Below are positions 844-55,365 of a DNA stretch of 64,000 bases, piece by piece. The notes beneath the pieces were generated by a model. It saw only the letters and a list, made by a program, of their open reading frames with translations. It was not told where the DNA came from and ran no database searches. The first letter of the stretch is position 1; each line of letters opens with the position of its first letter. The position numbers were made by a program, and so were the translations under genes. The stretch comes from a bacterium (GTDB lineage Bacteria; Patescibacteriota; Minisyncoccia; 1-14-0-10-42-19), in assembly GCA_030690215.1 (NCBI GenBank), contig JAUYHD010000016.1:17681-81680 (forward strand), given 5' to 3'.

Positions 844-1362
844 CTAATCATCGATTTTTTTAATCCTTCGCACATGCCTCTCTTCTCCTTTGAATTCGGT
901 CTCAAGCCATAGTTTTACAACGCTTTTTGCTTCTTCATCGGAAAGAAACCGCGCGCCGAGAGACAATATATTTGCGTCATTGTGCTCGCGCGAAAGAACT
1001 ATAATTTCTTTATCACCTCCATAATATACCGCCGCACGAACACCTCGAATCCGATTTGCAACCATTGCCTCTCCTTGCCCGGAACCGCCCAAAACAACCC
1101 CTCGACTCTCGCCTGCGGTGCCGCCGCCAAGCGGCGAGCCTCGCCCGTTAGGCGGGAGCGCAGTCGAACCGCTCGGGGCAAGCCCCTCATCATCACGGGC
1201 TACTGCCTCGGCAACCAGGCGAATAAAATCAGGGTAATCATCCTGATCATTGAGCGAATGCGCGCCCATGTCTTCTACCTCATGCCCCTCGTCTGCAAGA
1301 TATCTTTTGAGCTTTTCTTTGAGCGCGAACCCCGCGTGATCTGTACCTAGATATACCTTCAT
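844..1362 (-). CDS. rpiB: Ribose-5-phosphate isomerase B, Glu-type active site (GGSGxGE), carrying a 27-aa in-frame low-complexity insertion
   Basis: MKVYLGTDHAGF...REHNDANILSLGARF...ETEFKGEERHVRRI matches RpiB end to end; insertion DEGLAPSGSTALPPNGRGSPLGGGTAG is encoded by GC-rich nt 1111-1191. Confidence 0.85.
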   Translation of the reverse strand: MKVYLGTDHAGFALKEKLKRYLADEGHEVEDMGAHSLNDQDDYPDFIRLVAEAVARDDEGLAPSGSTALPPNGRGSPLGGGTAGESRGVVLGGSGQGEAMVANRIRGVRAAVYYGGDKEIIVLSREHNDANILSLGARFLSDEEAKSVVKLWLETEFKGEERHVRRIKKIDD

Positions 1363-2685: not shown

Positions 2686-3318
2686 GTGCTGTACCGTACA
2701 CTATGCTTTTTTGCAATCATACTTGTTTGTATAGCAATTCTTTCGGAAACAAAAAGTCACGCGGTCTCTGCTATGCCCGGTGTGCCTGCCCCCGCCGAAA
2801 TACCGCCGAAACATGAATCAACCGAAAAAAAACCTCTTACATGCGATACCTACCATCAACGAGTGTGGAAGGATATCCAAGAAATCAATAAGAGCATGGA
2901 GGGGGGGTTTATTCATCGTACGGATCTATGGGTATTAGCGCTTTCGCTTCGTATTATCGCACACGCAGAAGGATACCATGATGCCTCGTGCAAACCATTC
3001 AACTATTTTCCTGCCAAAGCATGCGAATCAACCAAACACGCGTTTGCAAGCCATCTTCAAACATCAGAAGACAAATCAAAAAAAGAAGTCACCCGAACGG
3101 CATATTCTACGCGAGCGCGGGCAAACGCAGCAGCACTCGCCTGTTTTTGTCCCGGCACGCTTACCCCCATACAAAACACATGTGATGACTGGAAAGAAAA
3201 ATCAGGAATCATCCTTACGGATTCAGGATATACCGAAGATCGCAATACTATTCTGCTTTTTTCCACACAGACAACCACCTACGGCTTTTTATACAGAACA
3301 TTTTGCAAACCCCGTTAG
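2686..3318 (+). CDS. Secreted hypothetical protein (signal peptide, Cys-containing)
   Basis: GTG start preceded by AAAGGAGA; hydrophobic N-terminus; no recognisable domain. Confidence 0.45.
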   Translation: MLYRTLCFFAIILVCIAILSETKSHAVSAMPGVPAPAEIPPKHESTEKKPLTCDTYHQRVWKDIQEINKSMEGGFIHRTDLWVLALSLRIIAHAEGYHDASCKPFNYFPAKACESTKHAFASHLQTSEDKSKKEVTRTAYSTRARANAAALACFCPGTLTPIQNTCDDWKEKSGIILTDSGYTEDRNTILLFSTQTTTYGFLYRTFCKPR

Positions 3319-3720
3319 GCAAAATCGGACCGTCTTCCTTGCCGCGTCTACTAGCGAATTTCGACGATTTGAACAACGGACCATTGTTTCTTTAACCATA
3401 TATAGCATCCGTCAGACGTAGATGCGGCTTCCGATTTAGCCAAACGGGGCAAACCCCGTAGTGAAAAATAGCATGGTTGTTCTTACGCCTCATCGCTAAC
3501 AATACAATGAACCGCAAACTGTGGCGTTGGTGTAAAACAGAGAAACCCACACATCGAACAACAAAGGCGTTATGCTATTTTCTACTAACGGGGCAAACCC
3601 AGCTCCACTTTTGTGATAAGAACGCATAGATAAAGCGTGATTTTTCCATAGTATGAGTTTTTGGGAGCGCAGGCTCAATACAAAAGTGGGGCTGGGCAAA
3701 CCCCATTGGGCACTACTGTC
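3300..3720. repeat. Composite MITE-like repeat region (CCCCGTTAGGC / GCCAAACGGGG termini). Homologous in reverse orientation to 46200-46545 and related to 41270-41330.
   Basis: The reverse complement of 3305-3420 aligns with 46255-46370 (CGTCTGACGGAT...GCTAGTAGACGCG...GATTTTGCCTAACGGGG). Confidence 0.6.
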
Positions 3721-3783: not shown

Positions 3784-4719
3784 CTATTCATTCGGGTGGG
3801 CTTTTTCTTTTTGTAAAAGATATTGATAGGCGGAGAGCGCCGCTTTTACCGCATCTCCAGCGGAAATATTGTTCTGCTTATACATTTCGTCGGTCACGTC
3901 TCCAGCCGCCCAGATTCCCTCCTTTGAAGTAGCCGCGGTTCTGTGATCAATAATAATCTCTCCGTATTTATTTTTTTCAACCAAGGTTCCCAAAAATTCC
4001 GAATTAGGAACGGCGCCGATTTCAACAAAAACCCCGGTCACATCAAGCGTACGTTCTTCCCCGCTTACCCTATCCTTATATGTAAGCCCTTTTACAAATT
4101 TATCTCCTAATACCTTAACGGTTTGCGCATTCATAATCGCGCCTTTAAACTTTTCTGATTTTTGAATATGTTCAAATGTCACCGGATCTCCTTTAATTGA
4201 GTCGGAATATTCGAGCAAATAAATTTCGGATGCGTACGGAATTAGATCCTGTACTGCTTCAAGCCCCGCGTTTCCTCCGCCGACTACCGCAACCTTCTGT
4301 CCGGCAAAAATAGGCGCATCACACGTGGAACAAAACGCAACTCCCTTACCGTTAAATTCTTCTTCGCCGGGGATTCCCATTTTTCTCCTTCGCGATCCGC
4401 TTGCTAAAATCAGCGTCCTGGCATCATAGGTACCCGTGCCCGTCGTTACCCGAAAACCACCTTCTATTTCTTCGGCTTTTTCTACCCGCTCCGAGAGAAT
4501 CTCAATGCCTTCTTGGGCGCGCGCGTGTTCTTCTAATTTTTGAGCGAGCTCGGATCCGGGAATGCTCACCATCCCAATCCAGTTAAAAATCTCCGCGGAT
4601 ACGGACGACTGCCCGCCGAATGACTCCGCAATCATAAGCGTTTTTATTTTTTTGCGCGCGGCATATACAGCTGCCGCCACCCCTCCCGGTCCTCCGCCGA
4701 TAATAATTGTGTCGTACAT
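3784..4719 (-). CDS. trxB: Thioredoxin-disulfide reductase
   Basis: MYDTIIIGGGPGG FAD motif, CSTCDA redox-active site, GGGNAG NADPH motif. Confidence 0.9.
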   Translation of the reverse strand: MYDTIIIGGGPGGVAAAVYAARKKIKTLMIAESFGGQSSVSAEIFNWIGMVSIPGSELAQKLEEHARAQEGIEILSERVEKAEEIEGGFRVTTGTGTYDARTLILASGSRRRKMGIPGEEEFNGKGVAFCSTCDAPIFAGQKVAVVGGGNAGLEAVQDLIPYASEIYLLEYSDSIKGDPVTFEHIQKSEKFKGAIMNAQTVKVLGDKFVKGLTYKDRVSGEERTLDVTGVFVEIGAVPNSEFLGTLVEKNKYGEIIIDHRTAATSKEGIWAAGDVTDEMYKQNNISAGDAVKAALSAYQYLLQKEKAHPNE

Positions 4720-4835
4720 AATTTAGTTATGAGTTAAGAGTAATAAGTTAGGAATAATAAGTTATGAGTAATGAGTTATGAGTTAAGAATAATAAGTTAA
4801 GAGTGATGAGTGATGAGTTATTTCACAGGCAAGCA
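4707..4835. repeat. Simple-sequence repeat array of GTTATGAGTTA / AGTAATGAGT units
   Basis: Tandem near-identical 10-12 nt units read directly; the same unit recurs at 55355-55375, 59843-59870 (inside miaA) and 62888-62915. Confidence 0.7.
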
Positions 4836-6779: not shown

Positions 6780-6833
6780 AGATATACGTAGACACAAGTG
6801 GATTGGGTAATGTGCCTGCCTAAAACAATGATG

Positions 6834-6920
6834 TGGACCCGCGGAGAATCGCCGCCCAGCATAGGGCGAGCCTCGCCCGCTCGCTACGCGAGCGAGGCGG
6901 GAACTCCGGCCTACCGGATG
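6834..6920 (-). pseudogene. Partial duplicate of the tRNA-Ala 3' half (T-arm plus acceptor 3' strand) interrupted in the T-loop by a 50-nt GC-rich palindromic insertion
   Basis: TGGACCCGCGGAGAATCG...AACTCCGGCCTACCGGATG repeats tRNA-Ala positions; insert GCCGCCCAGCATAGGGCGAGCCTCGCCCGCTCGCTACGCGAGCGAGGCGGG. Confidence 0.6.
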
Positions 6921-6935
6921 TCCCGACAGCAAAGG

Positions 6936-7006
6936 TGGACCCGCGGAGAATCGAACTCCGGCCTACCGGATGCAAACCGGTCGTTTTACCACTGAACTAC
7001 GGGCCC
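6936..7006 (-). tRNA. tRNA-Ala (anticodon TGC)
   Basis: Reverse complement GGGCCCGTAGTTCAGTGGTAAAACGACCGGTTTGCATCCGGTAGGCCGGAGTTCGATTCTCCGCGGGTCCA; G3:U70 Ala identity pair; cloverleaf folds; no encoded CCA. Confidence 0.9.
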
Positions 7007-7176
7007 CCAACTTCGCTCCGATATTCATCGGAGCTTCGATGGGCAAGCAAAATTTTTTACCTCTGCTTGTCCGTCCGAAGCCCTGAAGCATAGAGAGGCG
7101 AAGGCGGAAACTACGGACCTTTCGTTTAAACTCATTAGCAAAATATTATTCATTGTGCGTGTTTTCATATCTTCGG

Positions 7177-7225
7177 TCAACCCCGTTAGATGAGCAGAGT
7201 TTGGAACGCTCTACCTAATGGGGCA
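7177..7225. repeat. Palindromic REP-like element CCCCGTTAGATGAGC...GCTCTACCTAATGGGG
   Basis: One of at least six copies in the window (7177, 26752, 33549, 36513, 45838, 50455). Confidence 0.7.
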
Positions 7226-8204: not shown

Positions 8205-9521
8205 TCATTTTTTTATTTTAGGATTCCAAAAAATAAGGTTACCCAAATTCGGAATTTCTATGGATGTCGCGAGATCTAAGTCGCCGTCGCTGTCAAAATC
8301 GCGCAACGTAATATTGTCCCCCTTCGCGCCGATGGGATTAATCTGATGAAATTCCCATTCGCTCGTGTAAATATCCGGATCTTTCTGACTCAAATAATAT
8401 ATTCCTTTGCCCTTATCTTGCAGATCAACCGTTGTAACAACAATATCTATTCTGCCATCTTTATCTAAATCTACAGCATCAACATCTTTTGGATACCCTC
8501 CATATTTTCCCACTGGAATTTTAACTGCCTTCCAAGAATTGCCTTTGTTGTCCTGACGTAAGAGGATAATCGCTTCCGCAGGGCTCGTTGCCGCAACAAG
8601 AATATCCTGTTTGCCGTCCCGATTGACATCACGGAGACTTATCATGCGGACTTCTTTTCTGCGTAAAATATCGTGCCTCTGCCAATACCCCCTCTGTTTG
8701 CCCCCGACTCCTGGATTTTCAAACCACGATACGCCGGCATATGTATGACTTCCCCTATCAGATACAACAAAATCTATGTCGCCATCTCCGTCCATATCAC
8801 GACGATGAATGCCCATTTCCCAACGCATATTATTTTTATTAACCATGGGATAAAAAACCCACGCATTAACATTCAGGGGATTTTTTGGCGACTTAAACCA
8901 GCCAAAAATACCCTTGTCCCCCCCCGCGATAATATCGGGATGCCCGTCCTTATCAACATCAAACCATACCGTATCGTTCCACTCTTGCACCATATCCTTC
9001 GCAACCGACACAGAAATAGTATACGTTTTCCACAGAGATGGATTTAAATAATCTTCTTTCTTTTGTATAACATGCATCTTAATACCCCCTTTTCCTCCCG
9101 AAATAACTCCAAATGTCCCGTTTCCTAAAATCTGCGCGAGCAAAGCGAATTCCGCGCTTGAATTTTTCCCCACAGTAACGCATGACCAATTATCATACAC
9201 GCGTTTCCCTGGTGTAAGCATGCAAAGCCGTATCGTTCCCCCGCTATCTTGCCATGATGTTGCGGTGTACATCGTCCCATCTCCACCAACACGCAAACTT
9301 ATTCCGTCAGCGCCTTTTACCTTACTTGATGCGGAATCTTCAATATATGTATATGGCCACTGTTCACCTGGTTTAATCGCTTCTCCGGAACCGCCGGTAC
9401 CCGGCGAAGGGATGGGAATATTAAATCCGACACTATTTTGATCCCCCCAAAAAACCAAAAACAAAACGAATGCTATCGTAAAAAAAATACCCAACGAATG
9501 TTCATGTTTTATAAAATGCAT
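8205..9521 (-). CDS. Secreted FG-GAP / beta-propeller repeat protein (paralog 1)
   Basis: N-terminal TM/signal; repeated Dx(D/N)xDGxxD(I/L)(V/I) motifs (DVDKDGHPDII, DMDGDGDIDFVV, DVNRDGKQDILV, DLDKDGRIDIVV, DFDSDGDLDLA). Confidence 0.65.
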   Translation of the reverse strand: MHFIKHEHSLGIFFTIAFVLFLVFWGDQNSVGFNIPIPSPGTGGSGEAIKPGEQWPYTYIEDSASSKVKGADGISLRVGGDGTMYTATSWQDSGGTIRLCMLTPGKRVYDNWSCVTVGKNSSAEFALLAQILGNGTFGVISGGKGGIKMHVIQKKEDYLNPSLWKTYTISVSVAKDMVQEWNDTVWFDVDKDGHPDIIAGGDKGIFGWFKSPKNPLNVNAWVFYPMVNKNNMRWEMGIHRRDMDGDGDIDFVVSDRGSHTYAGVSWFENPGVGGKQRGYWQRHDILRRKEVRMISLRDVNRDGKQDILVAATSPAEAIILLRQDNKGNSWKAVKIPVGKYGGYPKDVDAVDLDKDGRIDIVVTTVDLQDKGKGIYYLSQKDPDIYTSEWEFHQINPIGAKGDNITLRDFDSDGDLDLATSIEIPNLGNLIFWNPKIKK

Positions 9522-22646: not shown

Positions 22647-23405
22647 ATGTCAATAAGATTCGACATCATCACAATATTTCCCGGATTATTCGCCCCGTAC
22701 TTAAACGAGTCCATATTAAAACGCGCCCAAAAGAACAAATTAATAGATATTCGCGTCCACAATCTACGTGATTTTACGAAAGCAAAACACAAAAAAGTGG
22801 ACGATAAAGCATACGGCGGAGGACCCGGCATGGTGCTCCAGGCAGAACCAATCATAAAAGCAATACGCTCAATCTTAAATTCCAAATTCCAAAATCCAAA
22901 ATCCAAACAAATTCCAAAACTAAAAATTAAAAAAACGAAAATAATTTTGTTCACTCCTGCCGGGAAACAATTTGATGCTAAAATAGCGCAAAATTTTGCA
23001 TCACGCTATGATCATATCATTATGATCGCCGGCCGTTACGAAGGTGTTGACCATAGAATTTATAAAGTGCTTAAAAATATGCTTATTACTCATAACTCAT
23101 CACTTACAACTCTTTCCATAGGACCGTATGTCCTCACAGGAGGCGAACTCCCCGCCCTCATTATGATTGATGCCATAAGCCGTCATATTCCCGGCGTACT
23201 CGGTAAAAACGAATCGCTCGAAGAAAAACGCGGGGGCGCAGGCATTCCCGCGTATACTCGGCCGGAAAAAATCACTTGGAACAAGAAAACATATGCTGTC
23301 CCAAAAATACTCCTTTCGGGCAATCATAAAAAAATTGCCGCTTGGCTTGCCGCCAAGCGAGCCTCGCCAAAAATGCCAAGGAATATGAGAAGAAAAGGAG
23401 CGTAA
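22647..23405 (+). CDS. trmD: tRNA (guanine37-N1)-methyltransferase with an in-frame AT-rich simple-repeat insertion (nt about 22876-22920)
   Basis: MSIRFDIITIFP...YGGGPGMVL; insert encodes NSKFQNPKSKQIPKLKIKK from AAATTCCAAATTCCAAAATCCAAAATCCAAA. Confidence 0.9.
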   Translation: MSIRFDIITIFPGLFAPYLNESILKRAQKNKLIDIRVHNLRDFTKAKHKKVDDKAYGGGPGMVLQAEPIIKAIRSILNSKFQNPKSKQIPKLKIKKTKIILFTPAGKQFDAKIAQNFASRYDHIIMIAGRYEGVDHRIYKVLKNMLITHNSSLTTLSIGPYVLTGGELPALIMIDAISRHIPGVLGKNESLEEKRGGAGIPAYTRPEKITWNKKTYAVPKILLSGNHKKIAAWLAAKRASPKMPRNMRRKGA

Positions 23406-25378: not shown

Positions 25379-25393
25379 TATGGCCATAACGCA

Positions 25394-25490
25394 AAGCGTA
25401 AAACGAAAAGTTCAAAACTAATGTGAAATAATTTCAACAAAGTTGAAATTATTATTCCTAAGTTTTACGTTTTTATTTTTGAGCTTTTAG
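25394..25490. repeat. 95-bp AT-rich hairpin element (GTAAAACGAAAAGTTCAAAAC...GTTTTACGTTTTTATTTTTGAGC); near-identical copy inside 16S rRNA V1 at 34063-34170
   Basis: About 95% identity over about 95 nt read directly. Confidence 0.8.
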
Positions 25491-26744: not shown

Positions 26745-26960
26745 AGAGCATTGCCCCCGTTAGATAGGGCGTTGCGAAGCCCGCTCATCTAACGGGGTTG
26801 ACCCCGTAGAGCAATATCGTATGATGCATTCTTATACGTCATTTTATCAAACAACATTTATGAAAAAGCAAGAAAACAAACTAATGCATGTGTCGCTGGC
26901 GGCGAACGCATGACGTATTATGCGATATTGTCTAACGGGGCTGGGTTGACATAAATAAAA
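26745..26960. repeat. Composite palindromic repeat (CCCCGTTAGAT...CTAACGGGG plus GACCCCGTAGAGCAATATCG...), homologous to 46360-46545
   Basis: Shared blocks CCCCGTAGAGCAATATCG(T/C)ATGAT and TTATGCGAT...CTAACGGGG. Confidence 0.6.
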
Positions 26961-27852: not shown

Positions 27853-30800
27853 ATGAAAAAAAATCTGTTCGGGGTTCTGACACTTGGAATCCTGGTTATT
27901 GTATCAAGTTTCGTTTCTACATCCGATGTTGCCGTAGCAGCACCTGTCCCTGGCAGCATAACCGTGTTTGCTTCTGATACTGGTGTTAACGACGCAACCG
28001 TGGGTACGCGAATTTGGGGCAATCCTCAAAATGTTTCAAGCAGTGATGACGTGTCCGCCCAGGCAAACTTCATAGAGGACCAGGATTTGATTACGCGGTA
28101 TCTCCGCGTTGCTCCTCAATCACTATCTGCAATCCCCGCAGGAAGCACTATTACCGGCATACAAGTTAGCGTTGAAAAGAAAAGGGGGGCAGCGGTTACT
28201 GTTAGGGATTATTCTATACGCCTTTATAAATCGGCGGGTTTTATAGGAAACAACAAAGCCGATACTGGCACTAACTGGCCCGCGTCAGACCAAACCTTCA
28301 CGTATGGGGGGTCGGGAGACTTATGGGGCGCCACATGGACAAGAGACGAAGTAGTAAATAATTTGCAGGTTGGGATTTCCGCCCAAAATACTTTTAACGG
28401 AGGGGCAGGGGCCGTCATTGATTCTATTCAATTCACTATTTGGTATGAATACACTCCGCCCGCCCCAACCGTAATTGAAGCAGACAACACCGTGTTTGCT
28501 GCAACTACCGGCGTCAACGACACAACCGTGGGTACAAAAATTTGGGGTACTACCAATAATATCGCGGCAAGCGATGATGCGTACTCACAAGTAAACCTTT
28601 TGACAGGCGGAGATATATCAAGGTATCTCCGTGTTGCTCCGCAGTCACTTTCTTCAATTCCTGAAGGGAGCACAATTAAAGGCATACAAGTCAGCATTGA
28701 GAAAAGTAGAGGTACGCAATTTGTTAAAGATTATTCTATACGCCTCTACAAATCCGGAACGGGCTACATAGGCAGCGACAAAGCTAACACAAGCGTTAAC
28801 TGGCCTGCTTTAGATGAAATAGTTACCCATGGAGGTAATGGTGATTTGTGGGGGACCACATGGACCAGAGATGAAGTGGTTAATAATTTGGAAGTGGGAA
28901 TTTCCGCCCAAAACCAAACTACCACTTCAGCAGGAGCAAAGATCGATTCCATACAGTTTACTATTTGGTATGAATACACTCCGCCCGCCCCAACCGTTGA
29001 CCTAAAAGCAAACAGCGCCAACGGACCAATATCAATTGACTACAACACAGGTGCAACACTTTCGTGGGCTTCGACAAACGCAACATCGTGTGCCGCATCA
29101 AACGCATGGTCCGGAACAAAAGGCACATCAGGGTCAGAATCAACCGGAAATCTTACAGCATCAAAAACATACACGATAACGTGTACAGGGACAGGGGGAA
29201 GCGCAAATGATAGCGTTACAATAAATGTCCTCGCACCACCGCCCCCACCTCCTCCGCCACCGCCTCCTCCGCCTCCTCCGGCAACAACTGTATGCCAAGG
29301 CTCTGTAACTCTCTATCAACACATCAACTATATCGGTTATTCAGCGGGTTTTGATGTTGGCACCTACACCCTTGCACAACTTCAAGCATGCGGAGTTATT
29401 AACAACGACATATCTTCAATGAAGGTACCGAATGGCTACCAGGCAACGTTATATGATGGAGACAACTATTCAGGAATAAGTCTTACGCGAACTACTGACG
29501 ACAGCACATTGGTAGATGACGGGTTTAATGATTTAACTACATCGCTACGCGTAACAACCATTTCAACAACACCCACTCCTCCACCTCCGCCACCTCCATC
29601 GCCGGAACCTTCTCCAACTCCCCCACCGCCACCTCCTCCAACAAGCAACCTTGCTTTCCAAATTAATGACAAAATCCAAGTAACATCAGGACCTCTCAAT
29701 GTAAGAAGTTGCGCAAGCTTATCTTGCAACTCTCTTGGTATACAACCAACAGGTTCTTTGGGGTCAATTATCGGAGGCCCAACATTTGCAGATGGATTTT
29801 TCTGGTGGAATATCAATTACGATAACGCTCCGGATGGTTGGTCGGTTGAAAATTTCTTAACTCTCGTAACCTCAACTCCTCTACCACCTCCTCCACCGCC
29901 ACCGCCTCCAGCACCAGAACCTTCTCCAGCTCCACCGCCGCCACCTCCTCCAACAAGCAACCTTGCTTTCCAAATTAATGACCGTATTCAAGTAAACACA
30001 GGGAGCTCGGAATTTAATCTTAATGTCCGATCAACAGCAAATGGCACGATCGTTGGACAGCAATCAAACGGTGCGTTGGGAACTATTATCGGTGGGCCTC
30101 AAAGTGCTGGCAGCCACACATGGTGGAATGTTAATTTTGATGTAGCGCCTGATGGATGGGTTGCTGGAGATTTTCTTGTCACCAGTTCATCTCCTTCTCC
30201 AACACCTCCACCTCCGCCACCTCCTCCAGCACCGGAACCTTCTCCAACTCCCCCACCGCCACCTCCTCCAACAACAACCCTACTTTCTATTCCCGGAACC
30301 ATACAAGCAGAAAGCTATAAAGTAGGGGGCGAGGGTATTGGGTATCATGACACTACCCCAACAAACGATGGGGGCGCCGGGACTCGCAATGATGGAGTGG
30401 ATATAAAAGATGTCCCGGGTGAAGGTTTGACTATCGGATTTACAAATATCGGCGAATGGCTTGCATACGATGTAAGTGTCTCCCAAGGAGGGACATACTC
30501 TATTGATCTCCGCATCGCAAACGGAGAAACAACAAATCGTTCTCTCCACCTGGAAATAGACGGAACAAATAAAACCGGTTCGGTTACCGTGCCATCTACC
30601 GGATCATGGAACACACAAACAACTATTACAGTGCCCAATGTTTCCCTTACCCAAGGAACTCATGTATTGCGCGTTGTGTTTGACAATACCCCGCTTGATC
30701 TCAATTGGATGTTGTTTAATTTTGTTTCTTCCGGAAGTCCGTCTGCGCCTTCTGTGTCCACAAAATTCCAGATAAACGACCGCGTGCAAACAACAGACAA

Positions 30801-32835
30801 TCTTAATGTCCGCTCAATACCTTCAACTGTAACTGGGGTGGTGCTCGGCACGCACCAAACGGGATCACTCGGGACAATTATTGGCGGACCCGTTTTTGCA
30901 AACAATATTTGGTGGTGGCAAGTAAATTACGATAACAATCCTGACGGCTGGTCTGCTGAAAACTTTTTAACAAAATCAACAACGTCAGCACCACCGCCGC
31001 CGCCTCCTCCGACAACCATAGACATCAAAGCAAATAGCTCCGATGGACCAATATCCATTGCGTATAATTCAAGCGCAACACTTAGTTGGACTTCCTCAAA
31101 CACAACATCTTGCACCGCATCAAACGCATGGTCCGGAACAAAAAGCACATCGGGATCAGAATCAACCGGAAATCTTACGGAATCAAAAACATACACAATG
31201 ACCTGCACAGGAACTGGAGGAAGCGCAAATGACAGTGTCACGGTTAATGTAAATCCTCTGTCGACTCCTCCGCCTCCTCCCCCACCACCTCCATCTTCTA
31301 GCAATGAAGCACTCATATATGTAGATAATCAAAATTCCTCTGCTTCAGATTCTAACCCAGGAACAGTAACAAGCCCGCTAAGAACTATCGGCAAAGCCGC
31401 TCAACTAGCAAACTCAAAAAATAAGAGCGGAATTCCGGTACGAATTATTGTAAAAGCAGGCACATATCGAGAGTCGGTTGCATTCAATGATGAAACCGGC
31501 ATCACAACATCACCTATTACTATTGAGGGATCCCCCATCGGACAAGCAATTATTTCAGGATCAGATGTATGGACAGGATGGACTTCTACATCAGGTCTCT
31601 GGGTTCATGACTGGCCTTATGACTGGGGCGCGGTTTCCTGGCTTGGCGTACCCTCCGGAGAACTCGCAAGACGCCGCGAAATGGTATTCGTAAACGGTGA
31701 ACACTACATGCAAGCTCTTTCAACGGGAGAACTGACGGACAAAACCTTTTATGTAGATGAGGTCAACAATAAAATCTATGTAAAATCTTCCACCAATCTG
31801 AACACCTCAAAAGTAGAAGTCGGCACCCGGAAAGGAATATTCTATGCAAAGAATAGGCAAAACTTTACAATACGGGGCATGATATTCCAACACGATACCA
31901 CTGCCGGTGATTTATCTGGTGTTAATTTCGTCCTCATGAAAAACCTTGTCATAGAAGACAGTAAATTTTTGTGGAATAACTGGGGTGGGATGCAAATTAC
32001 AAGAGGTGAGGGAATTACCGTACGCAGACTCGTTGGTAATTATAATGGCGGGAAAGGAACAGAAATGGTGTTTAGCAAAAATGCCTTATGGGAAGATATA
32101 GAAAGTTCATATAACAACTGGCGCGGAGATTCGGGAGGGTTCAACCAATGGAGTGTCGCAGGTTCAAAGCACTTAAGGAACCGAGATGTTACATATCGTA
32201 ATTTTGTCGTCGCCAACAACAAAGCGAGAGGATTTTGGCTCGATTATGATAACTCTGGCATTGTTTTTGACGGTCTTATTTCTATTAATAATTATGAGAG
32301 CGGTATCTCTCTTGAAGCCAACCAGGGTCCGATACTTGTAAAAAATAGCGCAATCTGTGGGAACGGCGACTATGACGGAGTAAGAACCTCAACTTCATGG
32401 GGCGGACTTATTTCTGCAAACTCCATGAACATTACTATCCAGGATAGTGTTTTCTATCGGAACGTTGTTACTAATATTCGGACTCACGGAGCAAACATCC
32501 GACCGATCAACGATTTCGTAACAGGAGGGGTGCATGACGGAATATCGAAAAATTGGACATGGACGGGCATCGTTGATGTGGGCCAAGGCACAAATGAGTT
32601 GCTTGTGTATAGAGTAGATGACGCTACTGAATTTTTGGATACCCTTACGGTAAACAACAATATTTATTGGAACCCTACTGACCCAAATACATTCAATGCT
32701 AATGGGAGAACAGATTTTGCCGGATGGAAAACTAAAACCGGTCAAGAGCAAAACTCGGTATTTGCCGATCCAAATACTCTTTCTTTGACCAGCCAACAAA
32801 GAGCACTGCTAGACAGATGCATTGCTAGCTACTAA
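27853..32835 (+). CDS. Giant secreted multidomain surface protein (1660 aa). Signal peptide; 2x about 175-aa repeat; 2x Ig-like; poly-Pro linkers; beta/gamma-crystallin; 3x SH3b-like; CBM6-like; C-terminal right-handed beta-helix.
   Basis: Duplicated NxNGPISIxYNxxATLSWxSxNxTSCxASNAWSGTK Ig-like units (29000-29235, 31017-31255); Greek-key CQGSVTLYQHINYIGY...; CBM6-like LSIPGTIQAESYKVGGEGIGYHD...GEWLAYDV...LNWMLF; beta-helix NFTIRGMIFQHD... Confidence 0.7.
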   Translation: MKKNLFGVLTLGILVIVSSFVSTSDVAVAAPVPGSITVFASDTGVNDATVGTRIWGNPQNVSSSDDVSAQANFIEDQDLITRYLRVAPQSLSAIPAGSTITGIQVSVEKKRGAAVTVRDYSIRLYKSAGFIGNNKADTGTNWPASDQTFTYGGSGDLWGATWTRDEVVNNLQVGISAQNTFNGGAGAVIDSIQFTIWYEYTPPAPTVIEADNTVFAATTGVNDTTVGTKIWGTTNNIAASDDAYSQVNLLTGGDISRYLRVAPQSLSSIPEGSTIKGIQVSIEKSRGTQFVKDYSIRLYKSGTGYIGSDKANTSVNWPALDEIVTHGGNGDLWGTTWTRDEVVNNLEVGISAQNQTTTSAGAKIDSIQFTIWYEYTPPAPTVDLKANSANGPISIDYNTGATLSWASTNATSCAASNAWSGTKGTSGSESTGNLTASKTYTITCTGTGGSANDSVTINVLAPPPPPPPPPPPPPPPATTVCQGSVTLYQHINYIGYSAGFDVGTYTLAQLQACGVINNDISSMKVPNGYQATLYDGDNYSGISLTRTTDDSTLVDDGFNDLTTSLRVTTISTTPTPPPPPPPSPEPSPTPPPPPPPTSNLAFQINDKIQVTSGPLNVRSCASLSCNSLGIQPTGSLGSIIGGPTFADGFFWWNINYDNAPDGWSVENFLTLVTSTPLPPPPPPPPPAPEPSPAPPPPPPPTSNLAFQINDRIQVNTGSSEFNLNVRSTANGTIVGQQSNGALGTIIGGPQSAGSHTWWNVNFDVAPDGWVAGDFLVTSSSPSPTPPPPPPPPAPEPSPTPPPPPPPTTTLLSIPGTIQAESYKVGGEGIGYHDTTPTNDGGAGTRNDGVDIKDVPGEGLTIGFTNIGEWLAYDVSVSQGGTYSIDLRIANGETTNRSLHLEIDGTNKTGSVTVPSTGSWNTQTTITVPNVSLTQGTHVLRVVFDNTPLDLNWMLFNFVSSGSPSAPSVSTKFQINDRVQTTDNLNVRSIPSTVTGVVLGTHQTGSLGTIIGGPVFANNIWWWQVNYDNNPDGWSAENFLTKSTTSAPPPPPPPTTIDIKANSSDGPISIAYNSSATLSWTSSNTTSCTASNAWSGTKSTSGSESTGNLTESKTYTMTCTGTGGSANDSVTVNVNPLSTPPPPPPPPPSSSNEALIYVDNQNSSASDSNPGTVTSPLRTIGKAAQLANSKNKSGIPVRIIVKAGTYRESVAFNDETGITTSPITIEGSPIGQAIISGSDVWTGWTSTSGLWVHDWPYDWGAVSWLGVPSGELARRREMVFVNGEHYMQALSTGELTDKTFYVDEVNNKIYVKSSTNLNTSKVEVGTRKGIFYAKNRQNFTIRGMIFQHDTTAGDLSGVNFVLMKNLVIEDSKFLWNNWGGMQITRGEGITVRRLVGNYNGGKGTEMVFSKNALWEDIESSYNNWRGDSGGFNQWSVAGSKHLRNRDVTYRNFVVANNKARGFWLDYDNSGIVFDGLISINNYESGISLEANQGPILVKNSAICGNGDYDGVRTSTSWGGLISANSMNITIQDSVFYRNVVTNIRTHGANIRPINDFVTGGVHDGISKNWTWTGIVDVGQGTNELLVYRVDDATEFLDTLTVNNNIYWNPTDPNTFNANGRTDFAGWKTKTGQEQNSVFADPNTLSLTSQQRALLDRCIASY

Positions 32836-33548: not shown

Positions 33549-33598
33549 TTGACCCCGTTAGATGAGCGAGCTTTGAGAAGCTCTATCTAATGGGGCTT
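33549..33598. repeat. Palindromic REP-like element followed by a promoter-like TTGACC-17-TATACT
   Basis: CCCCGTTAGATGAGCGAGCTTTGAGAAGCTCTATCTAATGGGG then GCTTGACCTCAATAATAAAAGGATTATACT. Confidence 0.6.
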
Positions 33599-33960: not shown

Positions 33961-36192
33961 CTTTTTGAGAGTTTGATCCTAGCTCAGGATGAACGCTGGC
34001 GGCGTGGATAAGGCATGCAAGTCGTACGGTCGTGCCTCTCTATCGCTCAGCACTCCCTAAGCTCAAAGTGTAAAACGAAAAGTTCAAAACTAATGTGAAA
34101 TAATTTCAACAAAGTTGAAATTATTATTCCTCAGTTTTACGTTTTTATTTTTGAGTTTTTAGTTTGAGTGCCGAACGGCAGTGAGGCACGACAGTGGCAG
34201 ACGGGGTAGTAACACGTAGGTACATACCACTGAGACAAGAATAACCCAGAGAAATCTGGGATAATACTTGATAGTCTAGTGATCGATTTTCCCTCACAAG
34301 ATGTTTTAATTTTTAATTCTCAATTATCAATTTTCAATAAAAATTTGGAAATTGAAACTTTCTCGCCTCGCCGTAGCTTTAGCGAAGCGGAAACATTGTC
34401 CGCCAGAGGCGGATCCTCCTCCGGAGGAAAAATTCAAAACAGTCCTTGCGGGTAAAAATCGGTTACTAGTAAAGGTTCGTAAGAACCGCTCGGTGAATGG
34501 CCTGCGGGCTATCAGCTTGTTGGTGAGGTAACGGCTCACCAAGGCTATGACGGCTAGGGGGTGTGAGAGCATGGCCCCCACCAATGGAACTGAGACACGG
34601 TCCATACATCTACGGATGGCTGCAGTCGAGAATATTGGGCAATGGGCGAAAGCCTGACCCAGCGACGCCGCGTGCAGGATGAAGGCCTTCGGGCTGTAAA
34701 CTGCTTTTATGGGGGAGGAATCCCCTCCTTGAGGTTGAGTGTGGTACAATCACGCTATGTATTATGTATATATCCTGAAATTAAATAATGAAAAATTATA
34801 CATCGGATACACTGTGGATTTAAAAAGGCGTATTGTTGAACACGAAACAGGAATGAGTATGCATACTAAAAAATTTTTACCTTGCATGCTTGTTTATTAT
34901 GAAGCATACAAATCACGAAAAGATGCGATGAAGCGTGAGAAAAATCTAAAAAAATTCAAAAGTTCATACAGACAATTAAAAATACGTATTGCTTCAAGTA
35001 TATTCGACACCAAGGAGGGGATGACGTTACCCCATGAATAAGGGCTTGCTAACCTCGTGCCAGCAGCCGCGGTAATACGAGGGGCCCAAGCGTTATCCGG
35101 AATCACTGGGCGTAAAGGGTTCGTAGGGGGTTGTATTAGTCCTATGTTAAAGCCTTCGGCTTAACCGAAGAAATGCATAGGAAACGGTATAACTGGAGGG
35201 TGTGAGAGGCTGATGGAACTCACGGTGTAGGGGTGAAATCCGTTGATATCGTGGGGAACACCAAATGCGAAGGCAATCAGCTGGCGCATTCCTGACCCTG
35301 AAGAACGAAAGCGTGGGGATCGAAAAGGATTAGATACCCTTGTAGTCCACGCCCTAAACGTTGATGACTAGCTATTGGAAGTATCGACCCTTCCAGTGGC
35401 GTAGCTAACGCGTTAAGTCATCCGCCTGGGAATTACGATCGCAAGATTAAAACTCAAAGGAATAGACGGGGACTCGCACAAGCGGTGGAGCATGTGGTTC
35501 AATTCGATGATAAGCGAAAAACCTTACCAGGGCTAGAAATTCTAGTGAAGTCGACCCGAAAGGGACGATGTCTCACAAGGACACTAGGACAGGTGCTGCA
35601 TGGTTGTCGTCAGTTCGTGGTTTGAACTGTTCCCTTAAGTGGGTCAACGAACGCAACCCCCGTTGCCTGTTATACATGTCAGGCAAGACTGCCCCTCACT
35701 TTGCGCACAAGCGCAAAGTGAGTTTACTAGTTACGCCTTGCTCTAGTTTGCTAGTTTAAATTTTACAACTAGAAAACTAAAGTGAGCAGAGCGAACGTAA
35801 CTAGAAAACTCACTTTGTTCGTTTGCGAACAAAGTGAGGGGAGGAAGGTGGGGATGACGCCAAATCAGCATGGCCCTCGACGTCCTGGGCTACACACATG
35901 CTACAATGGCACGTACAAAGGGCCGCAAAAGAGCAATCTGGAGCAAATCCCATCAAAACGTGCCCTAGTTCGGATTGAGGTCTGCAACTTGACCTCATGA
36001 AGCTGGAATCGCTAGTAATCGCAGATCAGCACGCTGCGGTGAATACGTTCTCGAGTCTTGTACTCACCGCCCGTCAAGTCAGGGAAGTCGGGAGTACCCG
36101 AAGTGCCAGGTATCTGGCCCGAAGGTAAGCTCGATAACAAGGACTAAGTCGTAACAAGGCACGGCTAGCGGAAGCTGGTCGTGGATCATTAT
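33961..36192 (+). rRNA. 16S rRNA gene, about 2.23 kb, with four insertions. (a) 34063-34170 hairpin element; (b) about 34275-34480 V2 expansion; (c) about 34720-35020 GIY-YIG ORF; (d) about 35694-35848 palindromic insertion. The 3' end is ...GGATCATTATCT and lacks CCUCC.
   Basis: Conserved blocks AGAGTTTGATCCTAGCTCAG, GTGCCAGCAGCCGCGGTAATAC, GGATTAGATACCCTTGTAGTCC, GCATGTGGTTCAATTCGATG, TACACACCGCCCGTCA, AAGTCGTAACAAGG read in order. Confidence 0.9.
34757..35041 (+). CDS. GIY-YIG nuclease-family ORF embedded in the 16S rRNA V3 insertion (possible intron-encoded homing endonuclease)
   Basis: MYYVYILKLNNEKLYIGYTVDLKRRIVEHETG is a canonical GIY-YIG motif; the ORF 3' end runs into the conserved TGACGTTACC rRNA sequence. 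Confidence 0.7.
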   Translation: MYYVYILKLNNEKLYIGYTVDLKRRIVEHETGMSMHTKKFLPCMLVYYEAYKSRKDAMKREKNLKKFKSSYRQLKIRIASSIFDTKEGMTLPHE

Positions 36193-36512: not shown

Positions 36513-36590
36513 CATTGACCCAGTTAGATGAGCAAGCTTTGCGAAGCTCTATCTAACGGGGTTGACAATACTCCCCCATTCTGTAGAATA
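36513..36590 (+). promoter_or_regulatory. REP-like palindrome whose 3' arm supplies a -35 (CTAACGGGGTTGACA) for a TTGACA-17-TAGAAT promoter; about 200-nt structured leader upstream of the MoxR-vWA gene
   Basis: Sequence read directly; leader contains hairpin TGCCTTTTTCTATGCATAAAAGGCA. Confidence 0.45.
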
Positions 36591-46199: not shown

Positions 46200-46545
46200 T
46201 CTATAGTAACGAAAAAGGGGCGGTATGTAAAGCCCCGTTTGGCTAAATCGAAAGCCGCGTCTACGTCTGACGGATACTATACCCGATTAAAGAAACAGCA
46301 GTCCATTGTCTGGGCTATCGAGGTTCGCTAGTAGACGCGACAAGGAAGACGATTCGATTTTGCCTAACGGGGTAAAGCCCCGTAGAGCAATATCGCATGA
46401 TATGTCATGCGTTCGCCTTTGGGGAGAAAAGACCACCGCGCTCGCTTATTTTTCTTGCATTAGGCATTTCCGCACAATGACCCATAAGAATGCATTATGC
46501 GATTTTGCCTAACGGGGTAAAGCCCCGTTTGGCTAAATCGTCATG
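46200..46545. repeat. Composite MITE-like repeat cluster (two nested element families) homologous to 3300-3720 and 26745-26960
   Basis: See 3300-3720 and 26745-26960. Confidence 0.6.
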
Positions 46546-50587: not shown

Positions 50588-51556
50588 ATGTCTATGGAAC
50601 AGAACAAAGAAAAAGAGGAATTTTCTCCTCCGCGCTCTGCTGAACTTCTGCAGAGATTTGAAGAAAAAGAAGCTCCCCCCATCGGGGAGAAGTTGCGGTT
50701 TTCAGGCGTCGGCGAAAAAGATGTATATAATATCTCGCCACCTTTCCGGATTGGGAACGCAACCGTTATCGCCGGGCGCGTTGAGGCACGAAAGGCATGG
50801 GCGGATTCCCAGGTTCTCTTTTTTGAAGAAAAGAAAGACGTATGGGTTCCGGCCAACGGCGCGCCAACCTTACAATTGGAAGACGGTTTCGCAACACGCT
50901 TCAAAGACGAAACGATTATCGGCGGTGTTGAGGTGTACCCCCATCCCTTTGTGTCCGGTGGCGTTGGCTACCGAACAGTTTTTTATCGCGGACACGATTT
51001 TTCATCACTTAAAAAATTCGCTGCCGGTCCGGACATGATGAAAGATATCCGGCTTACCCCTCTTGCAAACGAGCAAATAGGCGTCTTCACGCGCCCTCAA
51101 GGCGGGAGTAATGGGAAAGGCACGATAGGATATACGGAGCTACAGCACCTGGAGGATCTAAACGCAGAGAATATCCTTAATGCGAAAATAATTGAGAATC
51201 AATTCGCTCCTGAAGAATGGGGCGGCGCAAATGAATTGCATCCGTTACAAAATGGCAAAATCGGCGTCATTGGACACATTGCCTATCAAGAAGCAGAAAA
51301 CAATAAGCATTACTACGCAATGTCATTCGTGTATGACCCTCATACGCATCACGCTTCCCCAATTGAGATTATCGCAACGAGAAAAAACTTCCCCGCAGGT
51401 GACGCAAAAAAATCAGAGCTTGAAGATGTTATTTTCCCCGGCGGTTTGATCCGCCACGGCGACGGTACTGCAACACTCTATGCGGGTTTGAGTGATGCAG
51501 AAACCGGAAAACTCACCCTGCCAGATCCCTTTGCCGCAGAAGAAAAACATAGTTAA
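50588..51556 (+). CDS. Conserved hypothetical protein (possibly beta-propeller glycosidase/phosphorylase-like; uncertain)
   Basis: 322-aa ORF; Gly/aromatic-rich repeats. Confidence 0.35.
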   Translation: MSMEQNKEKEEFSPPRSAELLQRFEEKEAPPIGEKLRFSGVGEKDVYNISPPFRIGNATVIAGRVEARKAWADSQVLFFEEKKDVWVPANGAPTLQLEDGFATRFKDETIIGGVEVYPHPFVSGGVGYRTVFYRGHDFSSLKKFAAGPDMMKDIRLTPLANEQIGVFTRPQGGSNGKGTIGYTELQHLEDLNAENILNAKIIENQFAPEEWGGANELHPLQNGKIGVIGHIAYQEAENNKHYYAMSFVYDPHTHHASPIEIIATRKNFPAGDAKKSELEDVIFPGGLIRHGDGTATLYAGLSDAETGKLTLPDPFAAEEKHS

Positions 51557-55100: not shown

Positions 55101-55365
55101 GCCTATCATTATTGGGGGCATTATTGAAAGCGTTAAAAAGATAACAACAAAAAAGGGGGAACCAATGGTATTTTTATCGCTTCTTGACCTTGCGGGCTCA
55201 ATTGAAGTTGTTGTATTCCCGCGCGTTCTAAAATCATGCGGGCAGTTTATAGAAGCGGACAAGGGAATCGCGCTCAAAGGCAAGATATCGCACCGAAACG
55301 GCAATGTGAGCATTATTGCCGACGGAATCAAATCTATTGAACCACCAGAAACGAGTAATGAGTAA
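52150..55365 (+). CDS. dnaE: DNA polymerase III alpha subunit
   Basis: PHP N-terminus FVHLHVHSHYSLLDG, polymerase core, OB-fold C-terminus; 1071 aa. Confidence 0.95.
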   Translation: MSFVHLHVHSHYSLLDGLAKIDELVREAKELGMPAIALTDHGNMYGAIEFYKKAKKAGIKPIIGIEAYIAARNASDRVHGVDDKRYHLILLAKNNTGYENLLKLVTLSNLEGFYYKPRIDKEMLRKHSEGLIALSACLTGEISRALLAKNWDNAKALALEYQDIFGKDNFYIELSHHPNIPNHVEVQEGLKKLARELKIPMVATQDVHYLKKEDQQAQDILVAVQTNTKVDDEDRMTMKADDFSLTSPDEMKEAFNDVPEAIANTLKIANQIDLQIHLGEIKLPHFEVPSGHTPDTYLKELAEAGLMRRFNNKPSREARDRLAYELDVIEKTKFSSYFLIVQDFVNWAKNNGIVVGPGRGSAAGSLIAYSLNITNVDPLQYGLLFERFMNPERISPPDIDIDFADTRRDEVIEYARKKYGDDHVAQIITFGTMAARAAIRDTGRALGMEYGFCDKVAKMIPFSVGMTLAKALKANPEFAEEYRDNEQARRLVDSARKLEGVVRHASVHACGVVITKDPLTDTVPLQYAVSRDASGEKQIIVTQYSMNVIEDLGLLKMDFLGLKNLSIIEEAINLVETRTGKRIDIDAIPIDDAKVYKGLADGNTVGVFQLESGGMTRYLKDLKPTTIEDIIAMVALYRPGPMELIPSFIKRKQGEEKITYLHPKLAPILENTYGIGVYQEQMMRIARDLAGYTLPEADTLRKAIGKKIKSLLDEQQEKLIDGMIKNKIDKHTANQIWELFPPFARYGFNRCHAAPYAIIAYQTAWLKTHYPLEFMTAFMNADEKDVDRIAYLVKECQNLGIKVLPPDLNRSNAGFTPQREKDELAIRFGLRTIKNVGSNVVDMIMQERDRNGPYQTLAGLLERIPTKDINKKSMESLVKSGAMDSLGERNQMLENMDTILAFHKESSKGKQTGQNSLFGMQGGPSYTPTLQLKEVKAAASEDRLKWEKELLGLYISGHPLDKFRGLLETKKINTEFAKALKEETPIIIGGIIESVKKITTKKGEPMVFLSLLDLAGSIEVVVFPRVLKSCGQFIEADKGIALKGKISHRNGNVSIIADGIKSIEPPETSNE

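Follow-up and report, generated by a model that had tools for sequence, protein, structure and literature searches.

The window analysed in the present study is a stretch of 64,000 nucleotides from a member of the Patescibacteriota (contig JAUYHD010000016.1, positions 17,681 to 81,680), and the element described here is a short, GC-rich, double-hairpin repeat that occurs in it three times. The first copy lies within rpiB, the second within a dead partial duplicate of a tRNA-Ala gene, and the third at the 3' end of trmD (Table 1; loci outside the window carry L numbers and proteins carry P numbers). All three blocks belong to a single family of dispersed repeats, which is horizontally or anciently spread and constrained in structure. 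The open-access literature yielded nothing relevant on the core sequence or on palindromic in-frame elements in the Candidate Phyla Radiation (CPR), which is weak evidence that the family is previously unreported.

The assignment of rpiB is supported by Pfam PF02502 on the identical protein P0001 and by matches to RpiB structures in the PDB. Exactly the 25 inserted residues are missing from the aligned RpiB orthologs (17-sequence alignment), the nearest of which are 80-86% identical outside the insert, and of the 120 best orthologs, approximately 115 have a length of 143-152 aa. An empty site was observed in the DNA of a syntenic relative (Logan contig L011/L012; GATCCCGAG / CGCAGTCGAGGG, the slash marking the junction), which has the gene order trxB, a gene of 210 aa, GAPDH and rpiB in common with the window, and the ends of the insertion carry 2 nt of placement ambiguity. 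The site is filled in the window and empty in this relative and in the aligned orthologs, so the insert is not ancestral in RpiB, and the rpiB copy appears to be a lineage-specific insertion. The first-pass annotation had described 27 extra residues at 1111-1191, immediately before the GGSGxGE loop; the in-frame GC-rich insertion is real and in that region, but it is shorter by two residues and ends 8 residues ahead of GGSGQGE, within the loop that leads from helix 46-61 to strand 86-92. The solved RpiB structure 3he8 has 4 residues where the window protein has 30 (residues 56-85), and an AlphaFold model obtained with the ortholog alignment gives residues 60-83 a predicted local distance difference test (pLDDT) value below 50 and no secondary structure, with confident prediction elsewhere. 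Thus, the insert is predicted to be a disordered loop, and the open frame together with this model suggests that it would be translated as a disordered peptide rich in Gly, Pro, Ser and Arg, for which GSPLGGGTAGESR is an example of a spanning tryptic peptide. The insertion might have survived because it is a multiple of three bases and lies in a surface loop. Within the insert, the element core is flanked by additional GC-rich DNA that forms hairpins (28 nt upstream, 11 nt downstream), with two further small hairpins, one of them T-arm-like (GGTTCGACT). Upstream of the core (1150-1185, minus strand), a T-arm-like hairpin reads GAGCG GTTCGACTG CGCTC, and the 8-mer CCCGAGCG lies in this same part of the insert. 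Among the orthologs, P0025 carries unrelated insertions of approximately 19 residues in the same loop and approximately 11 elsewhere, and P0045 carries an unrelated insertion of 25 residues after the YYG motif; RpiB seems to accept insertions repeatedly.

At the tRNA-Ala locus, each half of the duplicate is identical to the intact gene at 19/19 positions, and the 50-nt block splits the duplicated T-loop between GTT and CGA. ARAGORN called no tRNA at the duplicate, and the intact gene was the only call at the locus for either ARAGORN or the Rfam tRNA model. An archaeal-type intron in the T-loop, which would interrupt a complete tRNA at a bulge-helix-bulge junction, was rejected, as no more than the last 38 nt of the tRNA are present in the interrupted copy and the 5' half is missing. 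In the relative L133, in which the adjacent membrane protein is 77% identical, the tRNA 3' end has an intact T-loop, and the 126-nt spacer after it contains neither duplicate nor element. In the simplest account, the 3' end of the tRNA would have been duplicated, as integrases do, and the element would then have struck the dead copy in its T-loop, the only place in which such an insertion does no harm; the copy might have survived because the dead duplicate was hit and the working gene was spared. It could be argued that the block was not inserted independently but belongs to an attachment site, the remnant of an element that carried an integrase and duplicated the 3' end of the tRNA. An exact 38-nt duplicate directly after an intact gene is the classic footprint of tRNA integration, in L008 tRNA-like debris and a copy of the element come after a tRNA-Leu gene, and the 3' end of trxB in L007 is encoded twice around the element with synonymous differences only. 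However, the gap between tRNA and duplicate is only 14 nt, the block lies inside the duplicate and not between repeats, the same block is found in the middle of genes elsewhere without duplication, and no integrase was seen among the open reading frames (ORFs) read around the tRNA-Ala locus, so we regard this explanation as very improbable. In L008/L027, the copy lies in T-loop-like sequence of a decayed 3' part of tRNA-Leu downstream of the intact gene. A further tRNA-like 3' fragment (GGATTCGACTCCCACCTTGCCCA) was observed in L008 (3445-3527, minus strand) between the tRNA-Leu gene and the element-bearing remnant, where tRNA debris seems to pile up.

Several results connect the copies with each other. 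First, the GC content of the window is 43%, and its two most GC-rich 40-mers fall in the rpiB and tRNA blocks (1094-1191 and 6833-6927), both of which read CCCGCCT-[variable]-CGGGCGAGGCTCGCC-[variable]-GGCGG on the minus strand. Second, the two blocks have an exact 15-mer in common, for which the window contains 6 matches with up to 3 mismatches versus 0.83 expected from shuffles, and in local alignment the inserts score 35, a value reached by 1 of 2000 composition-matched shuffles. Third, a covariance model was built from five equal-length short copies from other organisms (the MAFFT alignment of copies of mixed length put gaps at the ends and not in the loops, hence the equal-length set) and run with filters off. 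Over the window, this model ranks the rpiB copy first (36.4 bits, E = 2e-6) and the tRNA-remnant copy second (22.1 bits; fold z-score -3.2), followed by the trmD copy; moreover, the first hairpin and conserved core of the tRNA-remnant copy are near-identical to those of the Giovannonibacteria copy L005. The relationship between the rpiB and tRNA blocks proposed in the first-pass annotation is therefore borne out. A weak model match at 51080-51107 (minus strand; 12.9 bits, E = 0.4), in which CCCGCCTTGAGGGCG resembles a lone first hairpin, may be chance or a half-element.

The third copy was indicated by extra 15-mer matches within the final codons of trmD (23354-23370). The C-terminus SGNHKKIxxWRxKHxK is common to nearly all of 120 TrmD orthologs, whereas the window protein ends KKIAAW-LAAKRASPKMP-RNMRRKGA, with approximately 11 extra residues (LAAKRASPKMP). 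Four orthologs end in RRASP or QRASL directly before the stop codon, and these odd ends were predicted to stem from the element; for two of them (L137 and L138), the DNA bore the prediction out, with the element following AAAAAGATA / AAAAAAATA at the position that it also occupies in L074 and the window. The stop codon in L137 comes from the element, and the native EEWRKK tail is found untranslated a short way downstream. Among the 120 orthologs, the trmD site is filled in a few lineages. The L074 and window TrmD proteins match in 112 of 266 aligned columns (approximately 42%), so the shared site reflects either old inheritance or a strong site preference.

A chance resemblance, due to GC-rich low complexity in a loop that expanded in this lineage, or an artefact of assembly was also considered, given the very high GC content of both blocks and the chance recurrence of GC-only motifs in genomes of high GC. 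This reading is hardly credible and was rejected: the 15-mer and alignment shuffle tests go against it, an independent Logan assembly (L001) is 100% identical over 3007 nt of the rpiB region including the insert, dozens of unrelated contigs of low GC, taken from different studies, have the same architecture with compensated stems, and the prediction from the TrmD C-terminal peptides held at the DNA level.

All three window copies have the layout C-CCGCC-T-[hairpin]-GGCG-AGGCT-CGCC-[hairpin]-GGCGG-C. The element consists of two adjacent hairpins with CGCC/GGCG bases, connected by the 5-nt linker AGGCT, and is GC-rich and 32-57 nt in length. The conserved centre (GGGCGAGGCTCGCC) is almost palindromic, its central 15 nt being a nearly perfect palindrome, and the outer C is present before CCGCC in 39 of 49 copies and after GGCGG in 47. 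Short forms of 32-36 nt have loops only, and long forms have distal stems of 4-9 bp that are wholly different between copies and still complementary, such as CGCTCGC/GCGAGCG, CGTCAAATC/GATTTGACG, ATCAC/GTGAT, CCGAT/ATCGG and AAAC/GTTT; 15 distinct stems were observed for the first hairpin and 9 for the second. At a shuffle p of 0.05 or less, variable region 1 was self-complementary in 9/27 copies of low to moderate GC versus 2/26 chance-like matches of high GC, and variable region 2 in 11/18 versus 2/24. The conserved core is free of stop codons in all six frames, and its peptides are GRGSP, GEARP or ARLA in one orientation and GRASP, GEPRP or ASLA in the other.

The family extends well beyond the window. 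A scan of GTDB (one genome per species) with the pattern CCCGCCTN{0,20}CGGGCGAGGCTCGCCN{2,12}GGCGG returned 9 loci, 6 of which belong to Patescibacteria or Omnitrophota of moderate GC (39-54%), namely a Patescibacteria metagenome-assembled genome, Saccharibacteria, Giovannonibacteria, Curtissbacteria and two Omnitrophota; the remaining 3 are chance-like, in genomes of 67-73% GC. With a slightly looser pattern, at least 120 loci were found in metagenome contigs, and among the matches listed, about half were of the chance-like, high-GC kind and approximately 50 were distinct copies in flanks of 35-56% GC; the same looser pattern found no copy in the viral contigs of IMG/VR. Host taxonomy was taken from GTDB and NCBI loci only. 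In 352 kb of element-bearing loci, the covariance model added approximately 10 copies beyond the exact pattern, and L137 has three copies in 20.7 kb, which suggests a density of approximately one copy per 20-35 kb, or tens per genome of approximately 1 Mb. The possibility that the rpiB and tRNA blocks are the only two copies thus fails, given the third copy in the window, the distinct copies elsewhere and the several copies per genome where sequence sufficed. The earlier placement of the element in CPR-like genomes is correct for several Patescibacteria lineages and too narrow, as Omnitrophota also carry it.

Approximately 20 of the 50 distinct copies (40%) lie inside long ORFs, in both orientations and with all six reading frames used, which is possible because the conserved core is stop-free in any frame. 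The host proteins (Table 1) were named from conserved sequence motifs and not from a family search. Nine hosts named in this way are conserved genes, among them GAPDH, TrmD, TsaD, UvrA, YchF and NusA. In the GAPDH of L055, which is 60% identical to the window GAPDH, a 17-residue insert contains the element, and the window GAPDH lacks it. A functional peptide motif (GRGSP/GRASP) was rejected, as all six frames are used, and the divisibility of length plus one by 3 was too weakly different between copies in ORFs (11/21) and other copies (9/28) in a hand count to be informative. Outside ORFs, copies were observed between ribosomal protein genes (L130), abutting the 5' end of a tRNA (L060 and L067) and in T-loop-like sequence (L043). 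The TsaD-like ORF of L123 (on a contig of 37% GC; element at 8909-8940) contains other GC-rich in-frame stretches, e.g. ARRAGGTGGRAPDARADERSETSTGGKDNPGQDPRS and SPSLTRPERSRRVTNHH, which may be different insertion elements.

Table 1. Features of the window, flank duplications around copies outside it, and host proteins with copies of the element
Feature	Position or locus	Strand	Basis	Details
rpiB (RpiB/LacA/LacB family, GGSGQGE type), host gene	844-1362	minus	ORF	172 aa
In-frame insertion in rpiB	1111-1185	minus	ortholog and syntenic comparison	75 nt = 25 codons, GLAPSGSTALPPNGRGSPLGGGTAG
Element core in rpiB, short form	1122-1157	minus	covariance-model and scan-pattern match	TCCCGCCT-AAC-GGGCGAGGCTCGCC-GCTT-GGCGGCG
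Intact tRNA-Ala(TGC)	6934-7006	minus	ARAGORN; Rfam tRNA model, 65.6 bits	14 nt upstream of duplicate
Non-functional duplicate of last 38 nt of tRNA-Ala	6833-6920 (6902-6920 + 6833-6851)	minus	sequence match	carries element
Element copy in tRNA-Ala duplicate, long form	6852-6901	minus	sequence; model match	50 nt; CCCGCCT-[CGCTCGC GTA GCGAGCG]-GGCGAGGCTCGCC-CTATGCTG-GGCGG
Degenerate third copy, 3' end of trmD (22647-23405, plus)	23348-23382	minus	model, 13.9 bits	core with 1-3 mismatches
Flank duplication	L031			10 nt
Flank duplication	L123			15 nt inside tsaD; with 33-nt element = 48 nt, frame kept
Flank duplication	L044			28 nt
Flank duplication	L007			32 nt; trxB C-terminus ALEAERYLSE encoded twice, synonymous differences only
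UvrA, two different sites	L002, L032		motifs	
Lipid A acyltransferase-like	L010		motifs	
TsaD	L123		motifs	
GAPDH	L055		motifs	
TrmD	L074		motifs	
YchF	L024		motifs	
NusA	L022		motifs	
Cysteine desulfurase-like	L061		motifs	
PolX	L072		motifs	
CCA-adding enzyme	L106		motifs	
UvrD-like helicase	L084		motifs	

The junctions of the element were examined for signs of the way in which it moves. TTC precedes the CCGCC box in 12/49 copies, and GTTC lies directly upstream in 7/49 versus 1.5% in the background (p of approximately 9e-6), although many copies have other flanks. In addition, three independent insertions struck the same position of a T-loop (the window, L008 and L043), which together with the GTTC excess indicates a preference for GTTC-like sites. 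Most copies lack a target duplication; flank repeats above the 99th percentile of a shuffled-partner null were found in 4/49 copies, with lengths of 10, 15, 19 and 32 nt. A target duplication of fixed length was therefore rejected, as most copies have none and the lengths are variable. In L130, two copies lie in a common unit of approximately 100 nt with AGGTTC on both sides. A composite transposon, considered for copy pairs 3.7-4.4 kb apart, was rejected since the genes between them encode ribosomal proteins, RpoA, GyrA, glycosyltransferases and the like and include no transposase, and a CRISPR-like array, considered for the T-E-T arrangement in L044 and L093, was rejected since Tandem Repeats Finder found no regular array.

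Herein, we propose that the members of this one dispersed repeat family are probably non-autonomous, selfish insertion elements, perhaps inserted as single-stranded hairpins by an enzyme acting in trans. The element would move as single-stranded hairpin DNA, and the enzyme would recognise the structure together with the conserved sequence of the hairpin bases and linker, in the manner of HUH Y1 enzymes such as those of IS200/IS605 and the REP-associated tyrosine transposases (RAYT; REP, repetitive extragenic palindrome). The element would insert on the 3' side of a short target resembling TTC/GTTC, in most cases with no duplication of that target, and some copies would later come under selection to keep their hairpins. 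The single-stranded mechanism is preferred because the hairpin bases and linker are conserved, the distal stems are free to vary, duplication is usually absent and a short 5' target preference is indicated; as a mechanism in its own right, it is put forward with low confidence.

Several observations weigh against this proposal. The flank duplications, where present, extend from 9 to 32 nt, and such long and variable duplications are a poor fit to a transposase of fixed stagger or to a clean peel-and-paste reaction. The ends of the element often abut a CCGCC/CCCGC-like target, which points to microhomology, and the 8-mer CCCGAGCG inside the rpiB insert is also the empty-site junction of the relative. 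The rpiB insertion (75 nt) is longer than the core (36 nt), so the moved unit is not simply the core. No transposase or other partner gene was found among 20 ORFs around four copy pairs, which are mostly housekeeping genes. Four distant trmD genes with a copy at one position need either very old inheritance and unusual conservation or a strong site preference, and compensatory changes in place (see below) suggest a function for some copies, which would then not be purely selfish. Moreover, the copies outside the window were found by patterns that fix the core, and the conservation of the core is not independent of that search.

Template switching is a serious rival in this respect. A broken or stalled strand would anneal by GC-rich microhomology to an existing copy, copy it together with a variable flank and return, leaving ragged boundaries and occasional target duplications with no need of a transposase. 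The variable flank duplications in a minority of copies (L123, L007, L044 and L031) fit this scheme, as do the microhomology at the junctions (the 8-mer of rpiB, TGGCG at trmD, and CCCGC at the tRNA 5' ends of L060 and L067), the 39 nt of the rpiB insert beyond the core, the partial or multimeric arrays in L064, L041 and L046, and the failure to find a partner enzyme among the genes around copy pairs; ragged boundaries and variable duplications are better explained in this way than by single-stranded insertion. However, template switching alone leaves the constancy of hairpin bases and linker across phyla unexplained, does not account for free distal stems, a pattern resembling protein recognition, or for the GTTC/T-loop bias, and still needs an explanation for horizontal spread between phyla. 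We therefore consider it a possible but doubtful alternative to a selfish hairpin element.

The hairpins might instead be a structured motif useful to the host, as in REP sequences, which ends or stabilises transcripts or is a palindromic protein site, with the intragenic copies as by-products. Between the trmD copies of L137 and L138, two base pairs have changed in a compensatory manner (CGAAC/GTTCG to CGAAT/ATTCG, and CGCC/GGCG to CGCT/AGCG), so the hairpins of inserted copies are maintained, either by selection or through conversion by other copies. Several copies lie just after genes or between the genes of a ribosomal protein operon (L130), a stop codon lies within the element in trmD (L137 and L138) and trxB (L007), and the almost perfect central palindrome would suit a protein site. 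Against this, approximately 40% of the copies are in mid-ORF, where a terminator would be harmful, and the rpiB copy is missing from close relatives. No T run follows the hairpins of the window copies, and no family match was obtained in Rfam 15, where both window copies at E of 10 or less gave no meaningful match other than tRNAs, and L005 (at E of 0.1 or less) and 20 further element-bearing loci (at the gathering score) gave only tRNAs. The apparent compensation could also come from gene conversion by other copies. A host motif is an unlikely origin for the family as a whole, and a selfish hairpin element is preferred here as well.

Compared with known systems, the element is best filed as a new family of a known kind of insertion repeat, apart from Rickettsia palindromic elements (RPEs), REP sequences and MITEs (miniature inverted-repeat transposable elements). 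RPEs are palindromic, hairpin-forming repeats that insert in frame in conserved genes as well as in non-coding DNA of small, reduced genomes, where they are read through and give tolerated surface peptides; they are approximately 100-150 nt long, are confined to Rickettsia and its relatives, and comprise RPE-1 to RPE-8. This description reportedly goes back to Ogata et al. in 2000 and 2002. The present element is likewise palindromic, located in conserved genes and read through in frame, as in rpiB, which it lengthens by 25 codons, and in approximately 20 more copies in long ORFs. Thus, the resemblance to RPEs noted in the first-pass annotation holds for behaviour but not for family membership: with a core of 32-57 nt, two short hairpins, a conserved junction and hosts in at least two phyla, Patescibacteria and Omnitrophota, the element is set apart from RPEs, by description and not by alignment with their consensus sequences.

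RPEs are also mentioned in a report on REP sequences (PMC3733652), which are short, GC-rich stem-loops, dispersed, often located after genes and occasionally inside them, notably in repair genes, and which have a GTAG or CGTC tag at one end of the palindrome (PMC3733652). The element resembles REPs and the RAYT-mobilised REPINs (paired REP sequences) as a short, GC-rich, multi-copy stem-loop with a conserved base and a variable distal stem. It differs in lacking the GTAG/CGTC tag, in having hairpins joined by a fixed linker in place of inverted REP pairs, and in a much lower density with a much higher intragenic fraction (approximately 40%), being neither predominantly extragenic nor of high copy number; moreover, no RAYT was seen among the 20 ORFs around the four copy pairs. 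The GC clusters of yeast mitochondria and the double-hairpin elements of fungi are also GC-rich and 30-50 nt long, lie in AT-richer genomes, have stems more conserved than their loops, occur in merged, shuffled and tandem forms, with some in or beside tRNA and coding genes, and move by a mechanism still unresolved in that literature; for one type, GC42, a 2-nt AG target duplication is reported (PMC4478555). The element shares with them the GC-rich double hairpins, tandem forms and copies in or beside tRNA and coding genes, but those clusters are organellar and unrelated in sequence, and the AG duplication of GC42 was not seen in the element.

Insertion sequences of the IS200/IS605 type have end hairpins in place of the usual terminal inverted repeats, usually make no target duplication and prefer a short 5' sequence. 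Hairpins at both ends and the scarcity of duplications are found here too, and a short 5' preference is indicated; however, the hairpins are at the very ends and only 5 nt apart, the occasional long flank duplications are unexpected, and no tnpA was seen among the ORFs examined around copies. Bacterial MITEs (Correia, ERIC and RUP) are non-autonomous and dispersed and can be read through in frame, as the element can, and have terminal inverted repeats, a fixed duplication and a parent insertion sequence. In the element, duplications are mostly absent or variable, the ends CCGCC/GGCGG are complementary but belong to two separate hairpins, and no parent insertion sequence was seen.

Other repeats were also observed in the window. 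A second, unrelated hairpin repeat of approximately 45-49 nt (CCCCGTTAGAT...ATCTAACGGGG) is present in four copies in both orientations (7175-7223, 26755-26803, 33549-33595 and 36515-36561), one of them approximately 170 nt upstream of the tRNA-Ala gene. A repeat with GCCTAACGGGGTAAAGCCCCGT (3304-3471 and 46227-46540) occurs three times at a spacing of 145 nt near 46.3 kb and as inverted copies of 78 and 56 nt, 86-91% complementary, at 3.3 kb. A 99-nt AT-rich repeat with an internal palindrome is found at 25392-25490 and 34064-34162 (97% identical), and a 22-nt palindrome occurs twice (GTGCAAGACCGGGTCTTGCACA and GTGCTAGGCCGGGTCTTACACA, at 228-249 and 289-310) just beyond the 90-aa ORF that follows rpiB. 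The long gene region at approximately 27900-31300 repeats internally in units of approximately 312-525 nt and is the third GC-rich island of the window, unrelated to the element, with GC-rich runs of 9-nt periodicity (CCACCGCCTCC...) that would be Gly-rich if read on the opposite strand. Finally, an AT-rich tandem array of 7- and 14-nt periodicity (AGTTATGAGTTAAGAGTAATAAGTT...) lies upstream of a trxB-like gene (4711-4821), with related copies at 55347 and 59842.

To our knowledge, the genomes of CPR bacteria and Omnitrophota are small, streamlined and poor in mobile DNA. The presence of the element in core enzymes such as RpiB, GAPDH, TrmD, TsaD, UvrA, YchF and NusA indicates that even such genomes acquire selfish DNA, which is tolerated in their proteins. 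The occurrence of one 27-base pattern in separate phyla, Patescibacteria and Omnitrophota, suggests either horizontal spread or a host factor common to both, and the family is a second system besides Rickettsia, and a much broader one, in which palindromic DNA turns into protein sequence. For annotation, these copies are a warning, as additional loops, new C-termini, shifted gene ends and broken tRNA-like fragments all result from them. With the covariance model and the pattern, a genome-wide census becomes possible, and this could identify the enzyme that moves the element. In the most far-reaching version, which we consider quite improbable at present, the element would be an active mobile hairpin that crosses phyla, is exchanged between Patescibacteria and Omnitrophota living together in groundwater, and inserts as single-stranded DNA at GTTC/T-loop-like sites through an enzyme new to repeat families, with its hairpins kept by selection. 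If this were true, it would be a steady source of new surface loops in the core proteins of minimal genomes and a tracer of DNA exchange between them.

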